Notes: generated from the letters alone by a model not told the origin. Counted from the stretch's first letter, positions 2,654 to 20,832 are shown. The stretch is DNA of 32,000 nt from Candidatus Saccharimonadota bacterium (GCA_002421785.1 DIRZ01000003.1:90001-122000); one strand, 5' to 3'. Program-made: numbers and translations.

Positions 2654-3861
2654 TGCACTTTGCTGAATTTTTCTATCATCATCACGACACTCGCCCGTAC
2701 ATCCTCGCCATGGATCGCACGAGATAGTATATCGGCTAGCTTATCCATGTCTTCCTGCTGCGCTCCCCGGCGCGTGATTTCTTGTACGCCTAGGCGAATA
2801 AAGGCCCCTTGGTCATACATTTCGTCGAAGGCAACGGCAATATGATTTGAAAAAAAGTACTTTGCTATGTCTTCGGTCGACCCATGAGCGGACGTCATGA
2901 GGTGGACTTGGTGGGTATACGTCCATTCTTTGTCATCGGAACGCCGACATACGAGGCCGCGCTTGGTTAGGCCATCAGCTAAGGTGCGGGCATTCTCTAT
3001 AATCTGGTGTGCGTACTGCTCACCAAAAGACAACATTTCTTGGACAGAAATACATAGACCGATTGTATGGTCGAGGTGTGTTGACGAGTAATAACCATGC
3101 GCTTGGTTGTCTACATGGCTAAATATACCCTGGCTTTTACAGAGTATAATACCCTTATGAGTCCCCGGGAGTGTTTTATGCGTGTTTGCACTAATGACAT
3201 CAGCACCACAATCAAGTGGATTGGGGAAAGTGCCGCCGAGTATTAAACCAAAAACATGACTAGCGTCAAAAACGATTCGATTGTTTGGCCCGACCGCTTG
3301 GCGAAGACGCGCGATGTCAAACGGGATGAGGCTGTATGACATATCGATATATAGACAGATCGGGCGGTCAATACGGGAAATTTGGGTCGCAAATGCGTCA
3401 TAGTCGATGTCGAGTGTTCTAGTGTCCATCGGTAAAAGCCTAGATTCTCTCCCGGCATTCTTAATTATTCCAATCGTAGCGAAGTGACCGCCGTAACTGG
3501 GGTCGAGGCTGTATACAACGTCACCTATCTGCGTTAACGAAAACACCGATATCATCATGGCATGGAGCCCAGAAAGTGGCGCGAAGATTGCGCCGTACGC
3601 GTGTAGCCGTTCGCTTAGCTGGCGCTGGGTGGTGTCAACGACGTGATTGATTCCATTTTTTGCAAGCGATGTGAACCCATGAAACAAGGTGAAATCATTG
3701 TTCTCATGTGCCGGGCCAAAGTTATAGCGAGATGCGATATCGCTCATATTAAAGCGTTTAGCAGACTCAGAAACAACATTTTCGTTTGGGGTTAAGTGAA
3801 GATACTTATCGTTAGCTTCAATATCTGCAGTAATTTCGTGAACAATAGTGTCATAGTTCAT
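2632..3861 (-). CDS. Serine hydroxymethyltransferase-fold PLP-dependent enzyme (divergent SHMT-like)
   Basis: HLTPNENVVSESAKRF resembles the SHMT N-terminal L.LI.SEN..S motif. FAPLSGLHAMM resembles VQPHSGSQAN. ISANTHKTLPGTHKG resembles TTTTHKTLRGPRGG and retains the PLP lysine. The protein is too divergent to call a housekeeping glyA. Confidence 0.7.
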   Translation of the reverse strand: MNYDTIVHEITADIEANDKYLHLTPNENVVSESAKRFNMSDIASRYNFGPAHENNDFTLFHGFTSLAKNGINHVVDTTQRQLSERLHAYGAIFAPLSGLHAMMISVFSLTQIGDVVYSLDPSYGGHFATIGIIKNAGRESRLLPMDTRTLDIDYDAFATQISRIDRPICLYIDMSYSLIPFDIARLRQAVGPNNRIVFDASHVFGLILGGTFPNPLDCGADVISANTHKTLPGTHKGIILCKSQGIFSHVDNQAHGYYSSTHLDHTIGLCISVQEMLSFGEQYAHQIIENARTLADGLTKRGLVCRRSDDKEWTYTHQVHLMTSAHGSTEDIAKYFFSNHIAVAFDEMYDQGAFIRLGVQEITRRGAQQEDMDKLADILSRAIHGEDVRASVVMMIEKFSKVHYSFDIS

Positions 3862-3875
3862 ATACAGGCCTATCG

Positions 3876-4451
3876 CTATTGAGCGTATGCGATTTTAATA
3901 TAGTGCTCAATAAGGGCGTTGTCGCGGCGCTGCATGAATGACTTATCATAGGTATCTGCTTTGTAAGAGTTTATCAGCTTTAGCGCATGAGCCGGCGTAT
4001 CTGCCCATACCAGGTGGGAACCATCTTCCAGCGGCTTACCGAGGTGCGTATCATCAATGTCGCCAGTATAGCAGTACGATATTTGGATCAGCTTCCAGTC
4101 AGAGCGGTATTCAAGTGTGAGGCCAAGGGGCTTCAGCTTAATACTCGTTGCGTCTACGCCGACTTCTTCTGCAATCTCACGGACAACACCAGTCATGAAG
4201 CTCTCGCCATCTGACTCTGTTAGTGTGTACTGCAGCCCACCGCCAGGTATTTTATTGACACCTTCTGAATCTAAACTCTGGAGCGCAATCCGACCAGATG
4301 ATGGATCGACAAGGATACAGCGCGCAGCCAAGCGTATTGTCCAGTCAGACAAATTCATTTTATATGGAGCGTCATTACTGACCACAAGCGACTCACTTGT
4401 TAGGTCGTGTATTGTTGCAATGTGGGGTAGTATTTGTTCAATTTCTGTCAT
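3876..4451 (-). CDS. Nudix hydrolase
   Basis: The Nudix box is recognisable with an insertion: GGGLQYTLTESDGESFMTGVVREIAEEVGV (G..E..REhxEExGh). I place the start at ATG 4451: AGGAG lies 8 nt upstream and the upstream gene's stop is 1 nt away. The tracked start at 4556 would overlap that gene by about 100 nt. Confidence 0.75.
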   Translation of the reverse strand: MTEIEQILPHIATIHDLTSESLVVSNDAPYKMNLSDWTIRLAARCILVDPSSGRIALQSLDSEGVNKIPGGGLQYTLTESDGESFMTGVVREIAEEVGVDATSIKLKPLGLTLEYRSDWKLIQISYCYTGDIDDTHLGKPLEDGSHLVWADTPAHALKLINSYKADTYDKSFMQRRDNALIEHYIKIAYAQ

Positions 4452-4452
4452 G

Positions 4453-5565
4453 TTAGTTACTCCTAATTCTATTATAGTTTTCGGGAAGTGTCCATAAATC
4501 GCCACCATACGTGTTCCACGGACTACTGGATAGTCGCCTACCCTGTGCGCCGGCAAGTTGCTCTACGATCCCGCGCAGTGTCGCGTTTGATTTTTCACGA
4601 CCACCAAACGAAAGGAATGATTCTCGCGGGGAATACCGCTGCCTATGGTCCATAATGTCGTGATACGCTTCGGCAATGCCCTCTGGTGTGCGCTCGCAAA
4701 ACTTAGACGTAAGCCCGTCCTGCATGAATCGTTCCATACCTCCATGAGTAGGTAAAGCAACAATCATAGGCTTGTCGCATGCAAGCATTTCTGTCGCAAA
4801 CCGATTAACCGCTTCTGTTTCCTCGGATAAATAGATACCGGTGTTGCTTTTGTGCATAAACCGATCGCGAATTTGAACTTTGGTTAACGGCCCCAGAACA
4901 GTACTACCATCAGGGTTTACATGATCCCCAGTGGTGCTAAAGTCATCGGCATCGTATATAGTGACGTTGCCAAGCAAAGCAGCTGCACCCATTACCATTT
5001 TCCGGTATTGCACACTATCCGCATGTTTACGTTCAGAGGCCATCAGCCATCCGTAAATCATGATACTGATTTCTGGGTGCGCCTCAGCGACTTCAAGTAG
5101 CAGCTCCGTCTTTTTGGTCGGGAACCACTTAGCTATGTAAAGAATGTCCGACTCAGGTTGCTGAGGCTCAGAGCTGGGCGAAAATATATCTGGATCGACG
5201 AATAGTCCATCAGCCAACGCAAGCGAGTGGGGGACATTACGAGCGGCACCGTTTAAGTACTCATGTTCACCGGATTTATTAGAAAATATATTGCAATCGG
5301 TACGCGTAACATCGACTGGCACCGTGTCGCTTTGCGTTGTTGATACCACTAACCAGCGCTCCCGGAACGAAGGGTCGACATGCTCCATGTAGTCGACAAA
5401 ATCATTTGCCACGTAGTCGCCTACCAGTACAGCGCCCATACCGCCATCCGTATCTGGCTCGAGCAGAGTAAACACGGGTAGTGCACCTCCCTTTTCGAAG
5501 TTGGTTGCAAAGCGCGAAAAGGGCATACGCTCCTCGCTACTTACTGTTGCTTCATGCGTTTTCAT
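4453..5565 (-). CDS. GT-B fold glycosyltransferase-like protein (GT4/GT1-like C-terminal domain)
   Basis: ILYIAKWFPTKKTELLLEVAEAHPEISIMIYGW and EAVNRFATEMLACDKPMIVALPTHGGMERFMQDGLTSKF resemble the GT4 patterns (i.fvGR..p.KG...ll.a; E.fg...lEAmA.G.PVia...gG..E.v.dg.tG). GAGGA lies 7-8 nt upstream of the ATG. The N-terminal half is not recognisable. Confidence 0.5.
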   Translation of the reverse strand: MKTHEATVSSEERMPFSRFATNFEKGGALPVFTLLEPDTDGGMGAVLVGDYVANDFVDYMEHVDPSFRERWLVVSTTQSDTVPVDVTRTDCNIFSNKSGEHEYLNGAARNVPHSLALADGLFVDPDIFSPSSEPQQPESDILYIAKWFPTKKTELLLEVAEAHPEISIMIYGWLMASERKHADSVQYRKMVMGAAALLGNVTIYDADDFSTTGDHVNPDGSTVLGPLTKVQIRDRFMHKSNTGIYLSEETEAVNRFATEMLACDKPMIVALPTHGGMERFMQDGLTSKFCERTPEGIAEAYHDIMDHRQRYSPRESFLSFGGREKSNATLRGIVEQLAGAQGRRLSSSPWNTYGGDLWTLPENYNRIRSN

Positions 5566-10753: not shown

Positions 10754-12844
10754 CTACTTCGAGCGCTTTTCGATGATTTCCTGTGCCACGTTTGGTGGTA
10801 CTTCTTCGTAATGCGCAAGCTCCATCGTGCTTGCAGCGCGGCCTTGGCTCATACTGCGGATATCGCCGGTATAACCAAACATGTTTGCGAGTGGGACAAT
10901 CGCTTTCACAAGCTTCGCGCCACCCATCAGGTCTTCCATGGCATCGATACGTCCACGGCGGCTGTTAAGGTCACCGATGATGTCGCCCATGAACTCTTCT
11001 GGCGTAGTTACTTCAACATGCATAACAGGTTCGAGGATAATTGGCGTTGCACGCTTCACACCTTCACGCGCCGCAATACTACCAGCCAGTTTAAAGGCCA
11101 GTTCGCTTGAGTCAACATCGTGATAGCTACCGTCGTACAGTGTCGCTTTGACGTCGACTACTGGATAACCGGCAATCACACCGCCATACAATGTTTCAAC
11201 GATACCCTGCTCGACAGGCTTGCGGTATTCTTGTGGCACCACACCACCCTTAATCATGTCGACGAATTCAAAGCCCTTGCCCACTTCGTTCGGCTCGAAG
11301 CGTACCCATACGTCACCGTACTGGCCACGACCGCCGGATTGCTTGGCGTGTTTACCCTGAACTTCAGACGTGCCCTTAATGGTTTCACGGAAGGCAACCT
11401 GTGGCTCACCGACGTTCGCTTCGACGTTAAATTCACGCTTCATGCGGTCAATGAGGATTTCGAGGTGAAGCTCGCCCATACCAGACATAATCGTCTGACC
11501 GGTTTCGTCATCGGTGTGAACGCGGAAGGTTGGGTCTTCTTCGGCAAGTCGTTGCAGGGCGATACCCATTTTTTCCTGGTCAGCCTTCGTTTTAGGCTCA
11601 ACGGCGATAGAAACTGGAGGATCTGGGAATGTGATCGCTTCAAGCGCCATTGGGTGCGCAGGGTCTGTTAGTGTGTGCCCCGTGAATGTGCCCTTTAGCC
11701 CCACGACAGCAGCAATGTCGCCCGCACCAACTGAGTCGATATCTTCACGCTTGTCGGCGTGCATACGCACGATACGGCCAACGCGCTCTTTTTCGCCCGT
11801 TGTTGTGTTCAAAACATAGCTACCGGCGGTGAGTTTACCTGAGTACACACGCACAAAGATAAGCTTACCGACAAATGGGTCGGTCGCAAGCTTAAAGGCA
11901 AGCGCGGCCATTGGTTCTTTGTCATCTGGCTTGCGACTTACTTCATCGCCAGTTTTAGGGTTTTTGCCCCAAATGGCGTCGATGTCTAGTGGGCTTGGCA
12001 GGTAGTCAGCCATAAGGTCGAGAACCTTTTCGACAATCACGCCGCGGCCATCGCCACCAGTTACAAGGTAAAAGTCACCAGCAAGAACTCGCTTGCGAAG
12101 CGCAGCCTTTAGTTCGTCAATTGTGATCGAATCTTCGCCCTCATCGAAGAACTTCATCATCAGTTCTTCATCAGCTTCCACTGCGTTTTCAACCAGCAGG
12201 CTGCGTGCGTTTTTAGCTTTTTCGAGCATGTCTGCAGGAATTTCGCCAACGACAAGTTCGTGATCGGTGTAGTCAGTGTAGGTGTAGGCCTTCATATCAA
12301 TTAGGTCAACGACACCATTGATATCCTTTTCGAAGCCAATTGGCAGGTGAATTGGGAACGCCTGTTTGCTGAGGCGAGTACGGATACTTTCGAGGCTCTT
12401 GTAGAAGTCACCCCCGGTCTGGTTGATCTTGTTAACAAAACAAATACGTGGAACGCCGTACTTGTTGGCTTGGCGCCATACGGTTTCAGACTGAGCTTCA
12501 ACGCCCATCTTGCCGTCAAACACAGTGACAGCACCGTCAAGCACGCGAAGACTTCGCTCAACTTCGGCCGTGAAGTCAATGTGCCCCGGGGTGTCGATGA
12601 TGTTGATTTTGCAGCCCTTCCAGAAACAGGTTACGGCAGCGGAAGTAATGGTGATACCACGTTCTTTTTCTTGTGCCATCCAGTCAGTTGTTGCGCCGTC
12701 ACCGTCACCTCGAACTTCGCCGATCTTGTGATTGATACCAGTACGGTAGAGGATTCCTTCTGTCGTTGTTGTTTTACCGGCGTCGATGTGTGCGATAATA
12801 CCGACGTTACGGAAGTCCTTTAGCGGGACATTTGTTACTGCCAT
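10754..12844 (-). CDS. fusA: Translation elongation factor G
   Basis: 696 aa with [29 protein letters not shown]-type G motifs and full EF-G domain architecture. AGGAG lies 4 nt upstream of the ATG. Confidence 0.98.
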
Positions 12845-12969: not shown

Positions 12970-13548
12970 CTATTCGCCTGGCTGGAGCCGTTTCGATATC
13001 TCAACGGTTGGGTCGGATATGGAAACGACAATATATGGTGAGCTGATGTCATGTGGGTCGAACCCATCAATCTCAAGTCGCGGATCGGTCAAGATAAGCG
13101 CTATATCGTACTCATCGTCGTTGATGCCTCTTCCCCCAACCATCGCATCAAAAGACGGCATCGGTGCGATAGCAACGTGGTTGAATGTGCCGACGACCCA
13201 CTCACCTTCGACAACGTTCTCGCAGGCGATTCCTGACTCAGTAACATAGAAGGTAAATGCACCCTCGCCGACAACAACAGTATCACCTGAAGTCAACTCA
13301 GAAAGCCTCGGTACATCCGCTCGGTTGAGCATCACCTCGATGAATTGGTAGTCCTCGGGCCGAAGAGGAACTCCTGGCTCTGCCTCAAGAGAAGCCTTCA
13401 CGTGGTCATTAAACGCGCCACGAAGTAGCTTCATGTCATCGCCCAGCGACACGGCAATATGTTCACCCCGGGTATCAATCCCAAGTTCTTCTGAAAGACC
13501 GCCGACTATTTCAAAAAACGAATTGTCATCTGGTATGTGCTCACGCAT
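12970..13548 (-). CDS. Hypothetical acidic protein D (192 aa) of the rpsG-fusA cassette
   Basis: Long ORF on the same strand as its neighbours. ATG 13548 lies 1 nt after the stop of gene C (TAAtATG). The tracked TTG start at 13569 would overlap C. It shares an N-terminal peptide and module motifs with B and C. No known family was recognised. Confidence 0.75.
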   Translation of the reverse strand: MREHIPDDNSFFEIVGGLSEELGIDTRGEHIAVSLGDDMKLLRGAFNDHVKASLEAEPGVPLRPEDYQFIEVMLNRADVPRLSELTSGDTVVVGEGAFTFYVTESGIACENVVEGEWVVGTFNHVAIAPMPSFDAMVGGRGINDDEYDIALILTDPRLEIDGFDPHDISSPYIVVSISDPTVEISKRLQPGE

Positions 13549-13549
13549 A

Positions 13550-15781
13550 TTAAAACGCCATCTCCTCAAGCGTGCTTAGTGGTACGACATATCGTGCAAC
13601 GACATCGTTTCGCTCCGGTGTAGGCACACGCATGACAAGGGCAATCTCGCTGGTCTTTAGGAACGGGTGCTCAGTGACGACGCCATCGAGAGTCGCAAGG
13701 ATCTCCTGGCCGAGGATGTGCTTAGCGGAATCATCAATAAATGGCCCCGCGATTCGGAGTGTGCGTCCTGCGCCCAAAATCGCCTCGAGCGCATCAGCTG
13801 CCACGTCCATAGCACTGGGATTATCGTGAAATGCAAGGGCGATATCACGAAGCCCCTCGACACCATCAAACTCAGTCATCTCTGTCTGAGGCTCGCTGTC
13901 GATTGCTCCCGCAAGATACTCGAGATTCTTTTGTAGCATTTGTCGCGAAGACTGCGCGATATCAAGTTTCGCGGTTCGGGCGAGCGCTTCGCTACGACGG
14001 GCGTCATAATCAAGACTCGGGAGAGAGTATCCCGCAGGAAGTCCGAGGTCAACAACGAACCGTCGCGCCGCGTTTATCGTCACCATAGATGCGTTAGTGT
14101 CAGGATCTGTAATCGTAATCGTATTATTCCCATGCCCGAGATCGATAAACTCAAGATACGCACGGATCACGTGTTGTTCATCATCCTCACCATAAGAGCG
14201 TGTTTGAACATTAGCCTCAGCGAGGATTCCCTTTGCACTGCTAAATACATCTGGGGAGCTTACGCCAAATCCCTTTACTTGTATATCAAGCGTCTGTGAC
14301 TCTTGATCGATCACACGACTAAAGGTAGCCTCGGGAATCCTTAGCGCTGGGCCAATGACCTCGATAACAGGGTTCATGTCCGTTTGCCACCGTTGAAAGA
14401 ACGCTGAAATTCGATAATTGATCATCTCGTAGTCGTCTGCAATCGCCGCCTTGCTCGGATACGGTCGCTCGGCCTCACTTGAGGCATATTGGCGAACTAT
14501 TTCATGTAGTCCATGCAACTCAGCGAGGAACTGTCGCTGCCTCTCTTTTTCATCCTCGGGTATATCCTGTTCACCATCTCTGTCACTCGCCTCATCTGCG
14601 TGCTCGACGCTGGTCATTGAAGCTGCGTCTATCACTGCCTCACCTAGCCGTTGTTCAAGTGGTCGCACTCCAAAATTGCTGTCGAACTGCTCATTTGGCT
14701 GAATAATCGTATCTTCATCAAATGGATACGCACTCGTCTCCGGACGGTTAGCCGTCAGCCGTGTGAGGCTATCGATAGGGATATATATTGGGGTACGTCC
14801 ACCTTGCGCCTCTGGTACGAGGTACCACGTCTCGAGCGTGGGACGGTAAGTGATGAGCGTTTGACCTTCTGCTGTATCAGGCGTCGGAAAAAGACGTACA
14901 TTGCTAATGAGCAGCTCACGGAGCGTTCCATCATATTCTTTGGGCACTTTCGCATATGTCATCGTACGTCCATAGATGACACCTCGAACGACTGCGTCGT
15001 AAGTTGCATTGTCAAATGCGAGTCGATCGGTGATATACGTTTCAATCAGGTCGAGCACTTCATCGTCACCCATTGTCGTGTCAGCTTTTGACACATCAAA
15101 TGTCACGCTAAAGTCATCGAGAAGTTGACGGATAAGCTCAGGATCACGGCAGCCATCTGGCAACGCCTGAACTGCAGCGAATACTTCGGGGAAATTGGCG
15201 CGCACAAACTCCTCAGCACCTTCACGAGAGGGTTGGTGTGGCTCCATATACTCGATGTCGTCGGGGCGACTCGTGAACCACACTTGTCCATCCTCGTAGT
15301 CTTCGTCGAGACCATATTGCATCACGACGCGGTACATTGATCCATACTCACCCATTGGAACTCTCTCGACGTCAAAGCCTTTGACGATCGCCCGGAACCC
15401 TGCCGCATCAAAATATTCTCCGAGAAGATCTTCTTTGCGCTCGCCGATTCCAGGAAATGCGCCTTCATGGGCGTCGTCAACAACATTCTCATCGAGCGCG
15501 TATTCAGTTGGTCGGAGTCGTCCGGTTACCTTGATTGCTTCGTCGCGAAATCCAAGCATATCCCAATCACCGTTGAGATTGAGGAGTACTTCTTGGATGG
15601 TGTCTTCTGACGGGTTAGTCGCAAAATTCAGTGCGTCTTCGGCGCTTTTTGCATCGTGTATAAGACGGAGGATGCCCGGGTCAATCGTGTCACGAAGACT
15701 CGGTTCGGTCTCCCATGTGTTTTTGATGAGCGCATCAAATGCATCGTCATCGTTAGAGTGTGGCTGTGACTCTCGTATCAT
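13550..15781 (-). CDS. Hypothetical acidic multi-module protein C (743 aa) of the rpsG-fusA cassette
   Basis: An uninterrupted 2.2 kb ORF; the only competing ORFs are short antisense ones. It has no TM or signal sequence, is rich in D/E, and shows repeated sequence patterns shared with B and D. No known family was recognised. Confidence 0.8.
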   Translation of the reverse strand: MIRESQPHSNDDDAFDALIKNTWETEPSLRDTIDPGILRLIHDAKSAEDALNFATNPSEDTIQEVLLNLNGDWDMLGFRDEAIKVTGRLRPTEYALDENVVDDAHEGAFPGIGERKEDLLGEYFDAAGFRAIVKGFDVERVPMGEYGSMYRVVMQYGLDEDYEDGQVWFTSRPDDIEYMEPHQPSREGAEEFVRANFPEVFAAVQALPDGCRDPELIRQLLDDFSVTFDVSKADTTMGDDEVLDLIETYITDRLAFDNATYDAVVRGVIYGRTMTYAKVPKEYDGTLRELLISNVRLFPTPDTAEGQTLITYRPTLETWYLVPEAQGGRTPIYIPIDSLTRLTANRPETSAYPFDEDTIIQPNEQFDSNFGVRPLEQRLGEAVIDAASMTSVEHADEASDRDGEQDIPEDEKERQRQFLAELHGLHEIVRQYASSEAERPYPSKAAIADDYEMINYRISAFFQRWQTDMNPVIEVIGPALRIPEATFSRVIDQESQTLDIQVKGFGVSSPDVFSSAKGILAEANVQTRSYGEDDEQHVIRAYLEFIDLGHGNNTITITDPDTNASMVTINAARRFVVDLGLPAGYSLPSLDYDARRSEALARTAKLDIAQSSRQMLQKNLEYLAGAIDSEPQTEMTEFDGVEGLRDIALAFHDNPSAMDVAADALEAILGAGRTLRIAGPFIDDSAKHILGQEILATLDGVVTEHPFLKTSEIALVMRVPTPERNDVVARYVVPLSTLEEMAF

Positions 15782-15787
15782 GAACTA

Positions 15788-15821
15788 ATTAAATAGAGAT
15801 GCGCCCCTGTTTGCAAGCATA
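15788..15821 (-). promoter_or_regulatory. Promoter-like element with conserved 11-mer upstream of gene C (TATGCTTGCAA; TTGCAA, 17 nt, TTTAAT, 6 nt, ATG)
   Basis: The minus strand reads TAG-cgctTATGCTTGCAAacaggggcgcatctctaTTTAATtagttcATG. There is no Shine-Dalgarno. The same 11-mer occurs upstream of gene B. Confidence 0.5.
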
Positions 15822-15825
15822 AGCG

Positions 15826-16815
15826 CTAGAATTGTGGTGGCGTCGGTGTATCATATCGCGCTGAACTCATCCAGGCGATTGATGTACAGGGAATGATAAG
15901 TTCTCGCTCAGAGCCATTTGGTTCATACGCAGTCGCTTCGATAAACGGTACACAGCGGTGCGTGCCCTTCAGTTCCTGCGCGCGAATATCAGACGGACGC
16001 AATTCGACGTCTTTGACCCTCATCGTCCGTGTGTACGGATAGCGCAAAACCACAGGAATACCATCGCCGTTATCTTTGACGGAGATACACTCGCCCGCAA
16101 CTGAGATATGGTAATTGACATGCGGATCGATTTCCGCGCGTGAACGAAGATATTGTGCCGCATCGCGGACGTGCTCAAGTTGTTCTTCGTCACTCAAGTT
16201 TGCTTCAAAGACAAACTCACCGAAATCTTTGATAATCTGATCGTCGCGACGGCTGGTAAATGCAAGTTCATCAATAGTATTTGCATCCTCCGGGTAATAA
16301 TACGCGAATCGACGCTCTCGTAGCTCGGGGGACGGAAATGGTAGCTCGATACCTGCGAGTTCCTCAAGGGGGAGAACAATAGGCATCCGAGTGCCATCAC
16401 CTTTTCCGGCGTCTATTTCCACAAGATGCGATATTTTCGGGAAATGATCATTTGATTGCTCGGTCGAATCAGTGAAAAATATGAAACCGCGAGAAATTGC
16501 TTCTTGATCAACGTACGTCGAGGACTGCATTTCGGGTAATCCTGGGACTACCGCCCAACCACGGCCGCTGACTGTCACGGGCATATTCATATATCGCCAC
16601 CTCGCATCGAGCTGCTGTACATGAGCCTGTCGGATCGAAAGAGGGTCGATCTCGGTGTCGGTGAGCATCGATGTTGCTACTATCTCTTGACGAGAGAGTG
16701 CTTCACTGTGTATTTCTTCTAGATATGGATCACCAAGCTGTGGCTCTAGTCCATCGGTCATCTCGCGAAATATATCGTCAAAGTCTGGATGCTTACTGCT
16801 TGGTATCTCGCTCAT
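15826..16815 (-). CDS. Hypothetical acidic two-module protein B (329 aa) of the rpsG-fusA cassette
   Basis: Long ORF on the same strand. Two internally similar halves are visible: NMPVTVSG...GDGTRMPIVLPLEEL and NYHISVAG...NGSERELIIPCTSI. The N-terminal peptide is similar to that of D. No known family was recognised. Confidence 0.8.
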   Translation of the reverse strand: MSEIPSSKHPDFDDIFREMTDGLEPQLGDPYLEEIHSEALSRQEIVATSMLTDTEIDPLSIRQAHVQQLDARWRYMNMPVTVSGRGWAVVPGLPEMQSSTYVDQEAISRGFIFFTDSTEQSNDHFPKISHLVEIDAGKGDGTRMPIVLPLEELAGIELPFPSPELRERRFAYYYPEDANTIDELAFTSRRDDQIIKDFGEFVFEANLSDEEQLEHVRDAAQYLRSRAEIDPHVNYHISVAGECISVKDNGDGIPVVLRYPYTRTMRVKDVELRPSDIRAQELKGTHRCVPFIEATAYEPNGSERELIIPCTSIAWMSSARYDTPTPPQF

Positions 16816-16865: not shown

Positions 16866-17603
16866 TCAGGCGGCTGTTCTGCTATCTATCTCACGTGTCG
16901 GAAAATGCGTCGTTAAATCCGTCATCTGATAGTGCATGATCGGCTGGAGCCACCTGGCAACATCGGTGGCACTATCAAGATCACCCGTATACTCAAGCCT
17001 TAGTGCCTCAAGCGCATGCATCCCAACAACTGCTCTTGTCGACTTTCGGTACGCTCGTCTTAATCGCGCTTCGTCATGCCGATCGGTTATCTCCACAAGT
17101 CGCTCTGCATCGCGTGCAAGTCGCGTCAGCGCTCGATACCCTCTCACGTAACGCTCCATTGGCTCAATACGAGGTACAGTTGTTTCATGGGTGACTTCGT
17201 GGTGTAGGTGGTGAAGCTGTGGTGGTAATATCACCATCTGTGTCCTGAGCTCACGAAATACGAGGGGGATATGAGCGAGCGCCCCCGCATGTTCAAAGTG
17301 GGCGGGATCGTACGCATCCCGTGGCCAATGGACATGATGTCGGTTTGGTGTCGCAGGGTGATTTGATCGTGTCGTCACCACTGGCCATTCGTAGGAATCA
17401 TCGATGAAGCGTTCGACTACCTTTTCCGCAGTCTGACGCGCGAGAACAAACCCCCGGTCATCCGTCACAGGGGCAATACGTCGAAGATGACGTGGATTTA
17501 TTTTCCATACATCAAGTGGAGGCAGATGACCCTCCGGTCCAAACTGACGACTATGCATGTATGTATCGTAACGGATTGTCATCGAATTCGCTACAAAAAA
17601 CAT
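16866..17603 (-). CDS. Hypothetical His-rich protein A (245 aa, or 238 aa from Met8) of the rpsG-fusA cassette
   Basis: ORF on the same strand, 47 nt downstream of rpsG. It contains NRHHVHWPRDAY...FEH...AHIP...PPQLHHLHHEVTHE, which includes an HExxH string. The protein is basic and Arg-rich, unlike B, C and D. The start is ambiguous (ATG 17603 or ATG 17582). Confidence 0.7.
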   Translation of the reverse strand: MFFVANSMTIRYDTYMHSRQFGPEGHLPPLDVWKINPRHLRRIAPVTDDRGFVLARQTAEKVVERFIDDSYEWPVVTTRSNHPATPNRHHVHWPRDAYDPAHFEHAGALAHIPLVFRELRTQMVILPPQLHHLHHEVTHETTVPRIEPMERYVRGYRALTRLARDAERLVEITDRHDEARLRRAYRKSTRAVVGMHALEALRLEYTGDLDSATDVARWLQPIMHYQMTDLTTHFPTREIDSRTAA

Positions 17604-17650: not shown

Positions 17651-18130
17651 TTAGCCGCGGGCGAAGTGAGCAAACGCGCGGTTGGCTTCTGCCATTTTGT
17701 GGGTATCTTCTTTCTTTTTGAAAGCAGCCCCGGTTTCGTTGTAGGCGTCAACAATTTCAAGCGCAAGGCGTTTTTCATAAGGAATTCCGCTACGGTTTCG
17801 TGCGCTCTGAACGAGCCAGCTAAATGCGTAGTGAAGTTGGCGATGACCGGCAACTGGGAACGGAATCTGGTAGTTTGCGCCACCAACACGACGAGACTTA
17901 ACCTCGAAGTTTGGCGATACATTCCTGAGTGCTTTTTCGAAGACTTCGAGAGGCTCTTCGCTCTTGAGCGTTTTTGCTGCCTGCTCAAGTGCGCTATAGA
18001 CGGCACGCTCTGCAACAAGTTTCTTACCATCAAGCATGCTCTTGTTGATCAAACGCTGCACAAGAACGCTCTGGTACTTGCGATCGGGCTTAATGTTTCG
18101 TTGTAATTTCTTGGTAACTTTCCTAGGCAT
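17651..18130 (-). CDS. rpsG: 30S ribosomal protein S7
   Basis: 159 aa, MPRK...DRKYQSVLVQRLINKSMLDGKK...ANYQIP, typical of uS7. It starts 2 nt after the rpsL stop. Confidence 0.98.
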   Translation of the reverse strand: MPRKVTKKLQRNIKPDRKYQSVLVQRLINKSMLDGKKLVAERAVYSALEQAAKTLKSEEPLEVFEKALRNVSPNFEVKSRRVGGANYQIPFPVAGHRQLHYAFSWLVQSARNRSGIPYEKRLALEIVDAYNETGAAFKKKEDTHKMAEANRAFAHFARG

Positions 18131-18132
18131 GA

Positions 18133-18546
18133 TTATTTATCCGCTTTCTTGGCGCCGTACTTCGAGCGGCCCTGCTGACGTTTTGCAACACCCTGGAGGT
18201 CAAGTGCACCACGAACAATGTGGTAGCGTACACCTGGAAGGTCTGGAACACGACCACCACGAACAAGCACAACTGCGTGCTCCTGGAGGTTATGGCCTTC
18301 GCCACCGATGTATGCCCAGACTTCGTGACCATTGGTCAAACGAACTCGAGCAACCTTGCGGAGAGCTGAGTTAGGTTTCTTTGGGGTCTTGGTCGTTACT
18401 TTTACACAGACACCGCGCTTTAGGGGCGCATCCTGATCGTAGTAACGAACCTTCAGTGCGTTGTGAATACGGCCAAGCGCTGGAGACTTGCTCTTCTTGT
18501 TCGCAGTCTGGCGTGGCTTACGCACTAATTGGTTGATTGTTGGCAT
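18133..18546 (-). CDS. rpsL: 30S ribosomal protein S12
   Basis: 137 aa, [12 protein letters not shown]...[71 protein letters not shown] upstream. Confidence 0.98.
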
Positions 18547-18793: not shown

Positions 18794-19813
18794 ATGGACA
18801 ACCAACCAACTACTACAGACTCTGGTAATCATACCTCAAATAACCCGAATACTGGCTCGCCAACAGTGATCACAGCCAGTCCAGGCGGTGATGAGTCACG
18901 CACGTCGGCCGCCCTCGTCGCCGAAAAGAAAAAGCGGCGTTCGCGACCACTGCTCGTAGTACTCCTTGCGCTGCTCATCGCGGTGCTTGGGGGGGTTGCT
19001 ACAATGGCAGTATATACGTTGTATTTTGATACTTCTCATGTAAAGCAGACGTCTCAACCCTCTCAGGTAATAGCCGAGCGAGGACTCTCCGCTTCGGACG
19101 TAATTAGTAGCCTACAGCAAAACATGACTGGCACCACTGTGCCCGAAAGAGCACCTAATCCACCCGCTGTGAAAATTGCGGGGAAGGCATTCTATACACA
19201 ACTTCAGGCAGCGAACAACCTCGTTGCCAGTCGATCCGAAACAGTTACCAGTGCGCAAGCAGATGTCGAGCGCGTGAATCTACTTAAGCTGCTAAAGGAC
19301 CAGGGCTTTGAGGAGAAGAAGATTGCCCCGGACGATACAGAGGTTATCTACCTAGGCGAACTGACCCACAAAGACGTCGTATGCACTTTACAGCAGACTC
19401 GAACGTTAAACAATTCTGCCGCAGATCACCTTATTAGTGTGGCTTGCGCCAATATGATTGACTATACAAAACTCGCAGGTGTGCAGCAGCCTTTCATGAC
19501 CGCTTTTGGAACCGGTGGCTCGGTCTCTATACAGCAAATCACTGCGATAGGAGCACCGACAATTGTCGCATCGTCGACGAAGGGGTATCAAACAGCTGAG
19601 TTACCGCTGATGGGCTATGCTGACGATGGAATGCCCGCCTCGAACGGCTCTATGGCGTTATTTTATCAAACACCCGACCAAACGTGGCACTTCTTCAAGG
19701 CCGCACAAAGTATCGTGCCATGCAGCGAGTACAACTCGGTAGACCTCAAAAAGGCGTACTCGGGCGGTCGCTGTATGGCGCCGAATAATCAAGAGCTTAA
19801 GGTGTCGTTATAA
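18794..19813 (+). CDS. Membrane-anchored protein, paralog 1 (disordered N-terminus, one TM helix, about 260 aa Cys-containing ectodomain)
   Basis: AAGGAG lies 5 nt upstream of the ATG. A KKKRRSR stretch is followed by the hydrophobic segment PLLVVLLALLIAVLGGVATMAVYTLYF. It is clearly similar to the downstream gene, with 4 conserved Cys. No known family was recognised. Confidence 0.85.
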   Translation: MDNQPTTTDSGNHTSNNPNTGSPTVITASPGGDESRTSAALVAEKKKRRSRPLLVVLLALLIAVLGGVATMAVYTLYFDTSHVKQTSQPSQVIAERGLSASDVISSLQQNMTGTTVPERAPNPPAVKIAGKAFYTQLQAANNLVASRSETVTSAQADVERVNLLKLLKDQGFEEKKIAPDDTEVIYLGELTHKDVVCTLQQTRTLNNSAADHLISVACANMIDYTKLAGVQQPFMTAFGTGGSVSIQQITAIGAPTIVASSTKGYQTAELPLMGYADDGMPASNGSMALFYQTPDQTWHFFKAAQSIVPCSEYNSVDLKKAYSGGRCMAPNNQELKVSL

Positions 19814-19815
19814 TT

Positions 19816-20832
19816 ATGCAGCCACAAAATAGCACTCCGCAGCCACCGCTGGGCGAACCCGGCGCCCAGCCCGCCCCCGTCGTGCCAGCAAGCGAAGTTC
19901 ACGACTACCTTCACCCGATTATTGATCAACCAAAACGGACGTATCATCCAAAGGCCTTTCGCACGATACTTATTGTCTTAGTAGTACTTTCGCTTCTTGG
20001 AGTGGGGCTAGCGTTGCTAGCCGCTTACTTGCCTACTGTTTCTGGGCGCACCGCCAAAGAGACGAGTAATAAACCGACCACAACGCTCACAAAAGCGCTC
20101 TCTGCTTCTGAGGCTGTTGCGCGAATGAAAGAGGTATTCCCTGGGACCCTTCCCATCTCGCATAACATTTCGACGCCTGTTAAATTGGAAGGTAACGACT
20201 TCTACACCGTTGTAGCTGACGTCGCACCAGTCGCTGGCCTTGCCGATAATATAGAGTCGTCAAAGGTAATGCCGCTCATTACTAAGCTCGACACGTCGCT
20301 GACGAGCTACGGCATGACCGCCAACGTTATTTCGGACGGAACAGGTGCGGCGAGCTACCAGGCTGATTATTCCCACCCAGACGTACTGTGCCAGATCACT
20401 ACCACAAGAAGCGCTGACTCAAATGCCCCACAGCTGCTTGAGGCGAAATGTCTTGATATTGAAGCCTACCTAGAGGTTGCTTCGACGCAACGACCATTCT
20501 ACAACGTCTATAGCCCCGCCCAAGCGACCAGTAGTGAAGTTGCATTCACCGGAAAGCCCGAAGTGAAAGCAAGTGCTACACCGGGCTATCAGCTCGCTGA
20601 GCTGCCCGTCAGTAGCATTGCTAATGGCCAGATCGTCTCTGCGAGCGTCCGGGCGATGTTCTACCAACCGCCCAGTGGAATCTGGTACTACTTCAAGGAT
20701 CGTGCTCAAAAACTTATCGAATGCGAGCAGTATAATACAGATGTCCTCAAAAACGCGTATGTTGGCCAGCCATGCCGTAGCCTCTCGAAAGACATCGATA
20801 CGACTGTTCCAGCAGTAAAAAAGAAGTCTTAG
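19816..20832 (+). CDS. Membrane-anchored protein, paralog 2
   Basis: It starts 2 nt after the paralog 1 stop. TM segment ILIVLVVLSLLGVGLALLAAYL. Blocks alignable with paralog 1: LSAS.., H.DV.C....TR, GYQ.AELP, FYQ.P...W..FK, .CE.YN...LK.AY.G..C. Confidence 0.85.
   Translation: MQPQNSTPQPPLGEPGAQPAPVVPASEVHDYLHPIIDQPKRTYHPKAFRTILIVLVVLSLLGVGLALLAAYLPTVSGRTAKETSNKPTTTLTKALSASEAVARMKEVFPGTLPISHNISTPVKLEGNDFYTVVADVAPVAGLADNIESSKVMPLITKLDTSLTSYGMTANVISDGTGAASYQADYSHPDVLCQITTTRSADSNAPQLLEAKCLDIEAYLEVASTQRPFYNVYSPAQATSSEVAFTGKPEVKASATPGYQLAELPVSSIANGQIVSASVRAMFYQPPSGIWYYFKDRAQKLIECEQYNTDVLKNAYVGQPCRSLSKDIDTTVPAVKKKS

Follow-up and report, generated by a model that had tools for sequence, protein, structure and literature searches.

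An undescribed family of modular acidic proteins encoded by a fast-evolving str-operon insertion in some human-associated Saccharibacteria

What is encoded by the genes that separate rpsG from fusA in certain Saccharibacteria, and are the products related to one another or to anything known? The window analysed here, a stretch of 32,000 nucleotides (nt) from a Candidatus Saccharimonadota bacterium (GCA_002421785.1 DIRZ01000003.1:90001-122000), contains a str operon that carries a four-gene insertion at this junction. The inserted genes lie on the minus strand, as do all window features given below unless marked (+), and specify in order protein A (16866-17603; 245 amino acids (aa)), protein B (15826-16815; 329 aa, isoelectric point (pI) 4.6), protein C (13550-15781; 743 aa, pI 4.3, net charge -74) and protein D (12970-13548; 192 aa, pI 4.2). 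An initial annotation, made from the sequence alone, had grouped B, C and D into one new family built from about seven copies of a single beta-rich module and opening with a common acidic peptide, and every peptide that it quoted is present where it was placed. Profile comparisons show B, C and D to be paralogs of one previously undescribed family, seen so far only in Candidatus Saccharibacteria, and favour two alternating domain types over a single module repeated seven times.

Pairwise BLASTP comparisons among B, C and D returned nothing significant, the top segment (E 0.49; GTRMPIVLPLEEL versus GGRTPIYIPIDSL) being the string that had been described as the 'closing' motif of the module, and the claim of a common family was therefore tested with profiles. 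When ortholog alignments were compared using hhalign, residues 1-327 of B aligned collinearly with residues 1-353 of C over 309 columns with an E-value of 3.3e-4 and a probability of 38%, against E-values of 0.5-0.7 for reversed-sequence controls. Bridging relatives were found as well: a hidden Markov model (HMM) of B matched the N-terminal ~300 residues of several proteins of ~700 aa, with E-values from 2.8e-16 (P0093) to ~1e-11, and a 699-aa protein encoded beside fusA in metagenome or genome locus L014 was matched at 5.7e-8 by the HMM of B and at 7.8e-32 by that of C. Judged from these matches, protein B and the N-terminal half of C are homologs. The D HMM matched residues ~400-530 of relatives of ~570 aa with E-values between 8e-9 and 4e-5. 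These relatives resemble B and the N-terminal half of C in their N-terminal parts, so that D is, on the same kind of evidence, a homolog of the C-terminal portion of ~570-aa fusions of the type 'B-like + D'. Divergent proteins of 225-227 aa at the syntenic position of D in L092-L094 are also D homologs (E ~1e-19). The proposed kinship of D with B and C is thereby upheld twice over, by the N-termini of B and D (E 1.2e-6) and by 13 relatives in which a D module is fused behind B-like modules.

One string that had been listed as common to the three proteins, LRPx(D/E), did not survive this comparison. B, C and D have three tripeptides in common, against 3.06 in shuffled sequences, the strings occupy non-homologous positions in the B-C alignment and the three of them fall in non-equivalent units; LRPx(D/E) was rejected as a family motif on account of its chance level and its non-homologous positions. 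A chance-level string and non-significant BLASTP comparisons are what would be expected if B, C and D were unrelated orphan genes with coincidental similarities. That view has a negligible probability and can be regarded as already refuted by the profile evidence, as intermediates join B to C, and likewise D to its fused relatives, with E-values down to 1e-16, and the profile scores lie far above those of reversed controls.

Relatives were sought on a larger scale. A word-indexed search of 5.8 billion proteins returned six relatives of B, 24 of C and six of D, while the C alignment, used as a profile to search 1.84 billion representatives exhaustively, retrieved 128; at 50% identity, the family amounts to ~128 clusters in a set of 1.8 billion representative proteins. 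A scan of the Genome Taxonomy Database (GTDB) with the B alignment yielded no relative, and the region or the species may be absent or masked there. A census of architectures with iterated HMMs, in which CN denotes the B-like module, counted 88 CN+CC proteins, 40 CC-only, 26 CN-only (the B type), 13 CN+D fusions and 13 D-only. The only database name found for family members is 'hypothetical protein', as for the C ortholog FBF30_02305 of Saccharibacteria oral taxon 955.

How these proteins are built was approached through predicted structures and profiles of individual units. The AlphaFold2 (AF2) model of C, computed from 17 sequences, has a mean predicted local distance difference test score (pLDDT) of 72.8 and a predicted template modelling score (pTM) of 0.39, and resolves into four units in which a helical segment leads into a beta domain. 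U1 spans residues 29-180 (15242-15697), with predicted helices at 29-76 and a beta domain at 82-180, and U2 spans residues 186-345 (14747-15226), with predicted helices at 186-253 and a five-strand beta domain at 260-345. A disordered acidic linker with pLDDT below 50 (residues 354-407; 14561-14722) separates these from U3 (residues 409-586; 14024-14557), delimited by AF2 and unit profiles, and U4 (residues 588-742; 13556-14020). The model of D, computed from six sequences with a pLDDT of 65, comprises a helix at residues 10-21, a strand, helices at 36-74 and a beta domain at 90-185, that is, an N-terminal peptide and one helix-plus-beta unit. In B, alignment to U1 of C points to one unit at residues ~33-155 (16351-16719), and alignment to U2 to another at residues ~156-329 (15829-16350), which terminates in the hairpin ...RELIIPCTSI. 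The expected total of about seven units, two in B, four in C and one in D, is therefore borne out, by AF2 for C and D and by alignment for B.

To compare units, deep unit profiles were aligned and scored against reversed-sequence controls, which gave scores of 8-15 and E-values of 0.075-0.73. U2 and U4 matched with a score of 38.0, an E-value of 2.4e-6 and a probability of 89% (controls 0.075-0.08), and the 35 U2 and U4 beta domains could be aligned jointly and cleanly; at the level of profiles, this shows the second and fourth units of C to be homologous. U1 and U3 matched D with scores of 23.5 (E 0.0023) and 22.0 (E 0.0036), respectively, and U1 matched U3 with 16.6 (E 0.021); the score for U4 against D was 18.4 (E 0.018). 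Cross-type pairs behaved differently, U1-U2, U2-U3 and U3-U4 scoring 11-14, at the level of controls, and U1-U4 barely above it. The N- and C-terminal halves of C aligned collinearly along 278 columns, with a probability of 61% and an E-value of 8e-5 against 0.3 for controls. In the AF2 model of C, the beta domains of U1 and U3 (type I) have six to nine strands over 100-115 aa, and those of U2 and U4 (type II) have five strands over 75-90 aa. Two unit types in strict alternation, with B being I-II, C being I-II-linker-I-II and D being I, are thus well supported but not proven by the profiles, and D, whose body resembles type-I units weakly (E 0.002-0.004), is probably a type-I unit. The best-supported repeated block would be a B-like super-unit of ~330 aa, present once in B and twice in C, and from the alternation of the two types it would follow that C arose through duplication of such a super-unit, a history that is likewise well supported but not proven. 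One chimeric relative, P0060 (774 aa), has in its second half a U3-type unit followed by a U2-type unit in place of the U4-type, which, as far as profile assignments go, amounts to evidence from nature that either type-II unit can replace the other.

The recurring module of the initial annotation therefore stands in part: helix-plus-beta units do recur, and units of the same type are related, while the similarity between types remains at control level and the idea of one beta-rich module in seven copies gives way to two alternating types. Its parsing was remarkably accurate on domain boundaries and wrong on the single module and on LRP. The h-x-V-x-G strings that it had described as opening the module coincide exactly with the first strand of each of the five beta domains predicted in C and D, and the closing strings that it gave for C and D are found where predicted beta domains reach their C-terminal end, the pair from C being the last hairpins of U2 and U4. 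These coincidences lend something to a stricter version, in which a single ancestral beta-rich domain gave rise, by copying, to all seven units and the N-terminal peptide is a tag recognised by protein A: an h-x-V-x-G strand opens every beta domain and a hairpin followed by Pro ends several. There is also some similarity across types, the first unit of B matching the second unit of C with E 0.0025 in what is the top BLASTP segment too; D is weakly similar to all four units of C (E 0.002-0.012), and the D model weakly matches Sm-type small barrels in Foldseek, a fold that both types could share. We nevertheless consider the strict version doubtful, as cross-type scores of 11-14 fall within the 8-15 of controls and strand counts and domain sizes differ between types I and II. 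Recognition of the tag by A is further opposed by the family contexts of L012, L014 and L028, from which A is absent, even though the family protein of L014 keeps a related N-terminal motif.

The acidic peptide itself was located at residues 9-32 of B, where it is amphipathic and is taken together with DPYL (16720-16791), at residues 8-32 of C (15686-15760; predicted helix 13-24) and, again amphipathic, at residues 5-26 of D (13471-13536; predicted helix 10-21), the helices of C and D being predicted with low pLDDT. Profile-profile comparison of the N-termini gave a probability of 91% and an E-value of 1.2e-6 over 31 columns for B versus D, with reversed controls at E 0.17-0.2, and an E-value of 0.002 over 55 columns for B versus C, whereas C versus D was not significant (E 0.088). 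The shared peptide that had been noticed is hence strongly supported for B and D and more weakly for C. Inside each ortholog set of B, C and D, a Phe and the hydrophobic residues at +3/+4/+7 are invariant; these positions line a single side of an amphipathic helix that comes after acidic residues, and give the consensus [DE]-x-F-x-x-h-h-x-x-[LW], with DP next in B and C. The similarity persists in orthologs, as had been anticipated of a genuine family feature, in close and in divergent syntenic sets alike. A post-hoc regular expression matched B and D orthologs but only one of ~700 other long open reading frames (ORFs), and a 30-residue HMM derived from D preferentially matched, in many distant relatives and across all architectures, the N-terminus, for instance MSEYIPEKDVFAEIVSNL and DNSLFEAIIQGLRDEKRDP. 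Every separately encoded polypeptide opens with a conserved acidic amphipathic helix. Similar peptides also occur internally, at the junction of CN+D fusions, and the element therefore does not need a free N-terminus; read from these fused sequences, the internal copies speak against an export signal confined to the N-terminus but are no argument against a docking helix. Because the N-terminal segment is predicted to be helical at low pLDDT in the models of C and D, it is probably not packed on the body of its own protein.

The initial annotation had recognised no named domain in these proteins, and neither did we. Searches of Pfam-A 2025, NCBIfam 20, PHROGs 4 and PADLOC 2 returned nothing significant for A, B, C or D, sequence searches of PDB chains returned no significant match for the four proteins or the type-II domain, and 50 diverse relatives together with 35 isolated type-II domains gave no recurrent Pfam match. 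A PRC-barrel (RimM-like, PF05239) was considered for the type-II domain and rejected, as none of the 35 diverse domains matched it at E-values up to 10; a PDB profile search with the type-II domain was also empty. Foldseek comparisons of the C model with PDB and BFVD, and of the D model with PDB, gave no match at E below 1e-3. The best matches of D were Sm proteins, with E-values of 0.02-0.1, probabilities up to 0.95 and target TM-scores of 0.4-0.5. Like Sm/SH3-like small beta-barrel proteins, the D model has an N-terminal helix and a strongly bent antiparallel sheet; unlike them, it superposes at a root-mean-square deviation of ~10 A and has neither Sm1/Sm2 motifs nor any sequence signal, and the C model has no such matches. 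We take the likeness of the model to Sm proteins as a hint of shape, not of membership. No relatives of the family were found in phage genomes, plasmids, IMG/VR contigs or PHROGs, or by Foldseek in BFVD; a phage or plasmid origin was rejected for lack of matches in the phage, plasmid and viral-contig collections, and a defence system for lack of a PADLOC match. A paper on the genetics of Patescibacteria (PMC10633639) does not mention the rpsG-fusA block locus. Novelty is claimed at the level of family and fold only, the fold searches having covered Foldseek on PDB and BFVD.

Within the window, the minus-strand gene order starts with rpoB and rpoC and continues with rpsL (18133-18546) and rpsG, which encodes ribosomal protein S7 (17651-18130) and flanks the inserted block upstream; fusA, which encodes elongation factor G (EF-G; 10754-12844), flanks it downstream. 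Relatives of this EF-G assign the window to Candidatus Saccharibacteria. Intergenic gaps in the block are 44-50 nt. The TAA stop codon of C (13552-13550) and an ATG at 13548 are separated by 1 nt, with GAGGAG 13 nt upstream, and for these reasons we assign the start of D to this ATG, which gives 192 aa, the same length as in databases, and not to the TTG at 13569 reported by the ORF finder (12970-13569). C and D are probably translationally coupled. No terminator-like site was found on the coding strand between the genes from rpsG to fusA, and the sole noteworthy promoter-like site lies upstream of rpsL. The N-termini of B, C and D, as read from the sequences, are acidic and lack a hydrophobic stretch, with no Sec or Tat features; because the three proteins are strongly acidic (pI 4.2-4.6) and have no Sec-type signal peptide, they are probably cytoplasmic. 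Between rpoC and rpsL, on the opposite strand, lie two tandem paralogs (18794-19813 (+) and 19816-20832 (+); 31% identical, E 5e-30), each with an N-terminal segment resembling a membrane anchor and without a Pfam match, and this pair is syntenic in L001, L002, L092 and L094.

The order rpsG-A-B-C-D-fusA was seen, through metagenome loci and contig look-ups, in L001, L002, L005-L011 and L092-L094. Between block-bearing loci, EF-G is 91-92% and S7 85-94% identical, while identity between the same loci is 36-57% for B, 53-64% for C, 60-62% for D and ~20-27% for A; C is 76% identical over a partial copy in L003. The order and lengths of the block are thus conserved while its sequence is evolving several times faster than its neighbours. 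Distribution was surveyed in 80 fusA-anchored loci from GTDB species, and the family adjoins fusA in only three of them: L012, with a CC-only member behind an IS30-like transposase, L014, with a CN+CC member, and L028, with a CC-only member. In L015 and L016, where EF-G is 89% identical, rpsG directly abuts fusA. Given this patchy presence and the direct abutment in L015 and L016, the block is accessory and the rpsG-fusA junction is a variable cargo site in the phylum, and we describe the block as a fast-evolving str-operon insertion in some human-associated Saccharibacteria. In all 17 contexts seen, which cover three architectures, a family member lies directly upstream of fusA.

Several further arrangements of the junction were recorded. 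rpsG and fusA are also directly adjacent in L023 and L025; elsewhere (L012-L041) the junction holds 2-6 kb of unrelated genes, examples being an APH-like kinase with DUF520 in L028, a 472-aa gene in L022 and the IS30-like transposase in L012, and in several Saccharibacteria genomes rpsG does not occur within 7 kb of fusA. In two loci with a divergent block, a 163-aa prepilin-type (N_methyl) gene lies between rpsG and the A ortholog (L093:719-1210 and L094:3447-3938, opposite strand). An extra 173-aa gene with a weak winged-helix match occupies the same position in L001 (8715-9236), and a 214-aa ORF of L037 has a similar N-terminal sequence.

Protein A, the first gene of the block, is basic (pI 8.2) and rich in His (19 of 245 residues). 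In every close syntenic locus an ortholog of A stands ahead of B, and an A-like gene is absent from the family contexts of L012, L014 and L028. Residues 89-135 (17199-17339) hold an invariant motif, HH-x-x-W-P ... Y ... R ... P-x-x-L-H-x-x-x-H, the spacing of which, compared by eye and without a profile match, resembles that of HNH or His-Me finger proteins: as there, an HH dipeptide is followed ~40 residues later by L-H-x-x-x-H, all invariant. Unlike HNH proteins, A has no Pfam HNH match, no Cys or zinc ligands and no Asn in the expected place, and its identification as an HNH nuclease found no support in profile or PDB searches. A weakly similar His motif occurs in a 130-aa ORF of L022 (3489-3881). 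In L014, a 383-aa gene without a Pfam match (3550-4701) lies between rpsG and the CN+CC protein; it was considered as a homolog of A and rejected as unrelated, and by eye only it contains a D...E-V-K string reminiscent of PD-(D/E)xK nucleases.

What might the products of such a block do? We favour, with a probability of roughly 0.5, the explanation that B, C and D are subunits of one acidic hetero-oligomeric assembly in which the N-terminal helix is a docking element. The three proteins would act together as one assembly, because modules that are split here are found fused in other genomes, the genes sit close to one another, C and D are coupled and no terminator was found between rpsG and fusA. 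The assembly would be made at high level alongside the translation genes, and its flexible N-terminal helices would serve all of its members for docking, whether on a partner subunit or on His-rich A. Elsewhere the same modules occur in fused form (B-like+CC, B-like+D) or split (CC, B-like or D alone). A may be a partner of the B-D assembly. From the patchy distribution and fast divergence, we infer that the function is accessory rather than core. Several points weigh against this explanation. The assembly is approached by the indirect logic of fusion and fission, and the genomic context comes from close relatives and three fusA-anchored loci only. In direct HMM searches, the local orthologs of B and C match each other weakly, at 6-14 bits, so that the link between B and C depends on intermediate sequences and on profile-profile probabilities no higher than 38-61%. 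D is assigned to type I on E-values of ~0.002-0.004, and the AF2 models were built on shallow alignments (17 sequences for C, six for D), the pTM of C being 0.39. A fuller picture, in which A-B-C-D form an unknown lineage-specific assembly with two new alpha/beta domain types and a shared docking helix, whose expression from the str operon is coupled to translation capacity and which acts on translation or at the interface between epibiont and host, is put forward tentatively.

The same observations admit other functions, each of which we hold to be less likely. If B, C and D were host-interaction effectors exported by a non-classical route, with the acidic helix as export signal, their fast divergence relative to housekeeping genes, their patchy presence among close relatives, the shuffling of modules between architectures and the motif at the N-terminus of polypeptides of every architecture would all find a place; the acidic N-termini show no Sec or Tat features and no hydrophobic core, though, the block has no secretion genes, the same peptide is kept internally in CN+D fusions and effectors are not usually embedded in the str operon, and we therefore judge this reading rather improbable. 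Even less credence is given to a nuclease-centred conflict module in which A would be HNH-like and the acidic B-D its regulators, inhibitors or nucleic-acid mimics. The invariant HH...H...H spacing of A, the extreme acidity of B-D and the behaviour of the block as an accessory island at a variable site are in keeping with it, as is the D...E-x-K-like string, seen by eye only, in the partner gene of L014; it is opposed by the lack of PADLOC, Pfam, NCBIfam or PDB matches for A or B-D, by the absence of A-like genes from other family contexts, by the absence of any separate promoter or terminator among the sites detected and by the lack of relatives in phage, plasmid and viral-contig collections.

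We assign an equally low likelihood to a role as translation accessory factors, that is, as acidic stalk-like proteins docked by the N-terminal helix and acting on or with EF-G or the ribosome. The position of a family member directly upstream of fusA in every context, in three architectures, the apparent co-transcription of the genes with rpsL-rpsG-fusA and a layout of acidic protein, N-terminal helix, flexible region and alpha/beta domains that resembles bL12 would suit such factors. The sample of contexts is biased, however, three loci having been found by looking beside fusA and the rest being close relatives; closely related genomes dispense with the block, and it evolves far faster than its would-be ribosomal partners. 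An assembly of B, C and D with the helix as docking element thus remains the reading that we prefer.

Saccharibacteria, also called TM7, are ultra-small epibionts found in the human mouth and gut, and about half of their genes have no assigned function. Here, a whole 4-kb block, lying in an operon that ranks among the most conserved in bacteria, resolves into a coherent modular family without detectable known relatives. The family is now defined, as are the two types of domain in it, the signature at its N-terminus and the variants in which it is fused or split. The rpsG-fusA junction is revealed as a cargo site in this phylum. Domain boundaries, a peptide that can be deleted and predicted partners provide handles for genetics in cultured strains that can now be transformed.

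The arrangement invites comparison with known systems in two respects. The argument that B, C and D act together follows 'Rosetta stone' fusion logic, since modules that are separate neighbouring genes here are single fused polypeptides elsewhere (CN+CC, CN+D); this is a principle of inference and not a protein family. The second comparison is with docking-helix systems: the N-terminal domain of bL12 docks on bL10, and the encapsulation peptides of microcompartments are terminal amphipathic docking helices. As in these systems, a short terminal amphipathic helix is followed here by a flexible stretch and a folded body, and the helix is common to several otherwise different polypeptides encoded together. 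Neither a sequence similarity to these systems nor a stalk or shell partner came to light, in an analysis that compared no sequences with them and did not scan the window's other genes for shell proteins. The peptide of B, C and D differs from those compared in being acidic and in carrying an invariant Phe.

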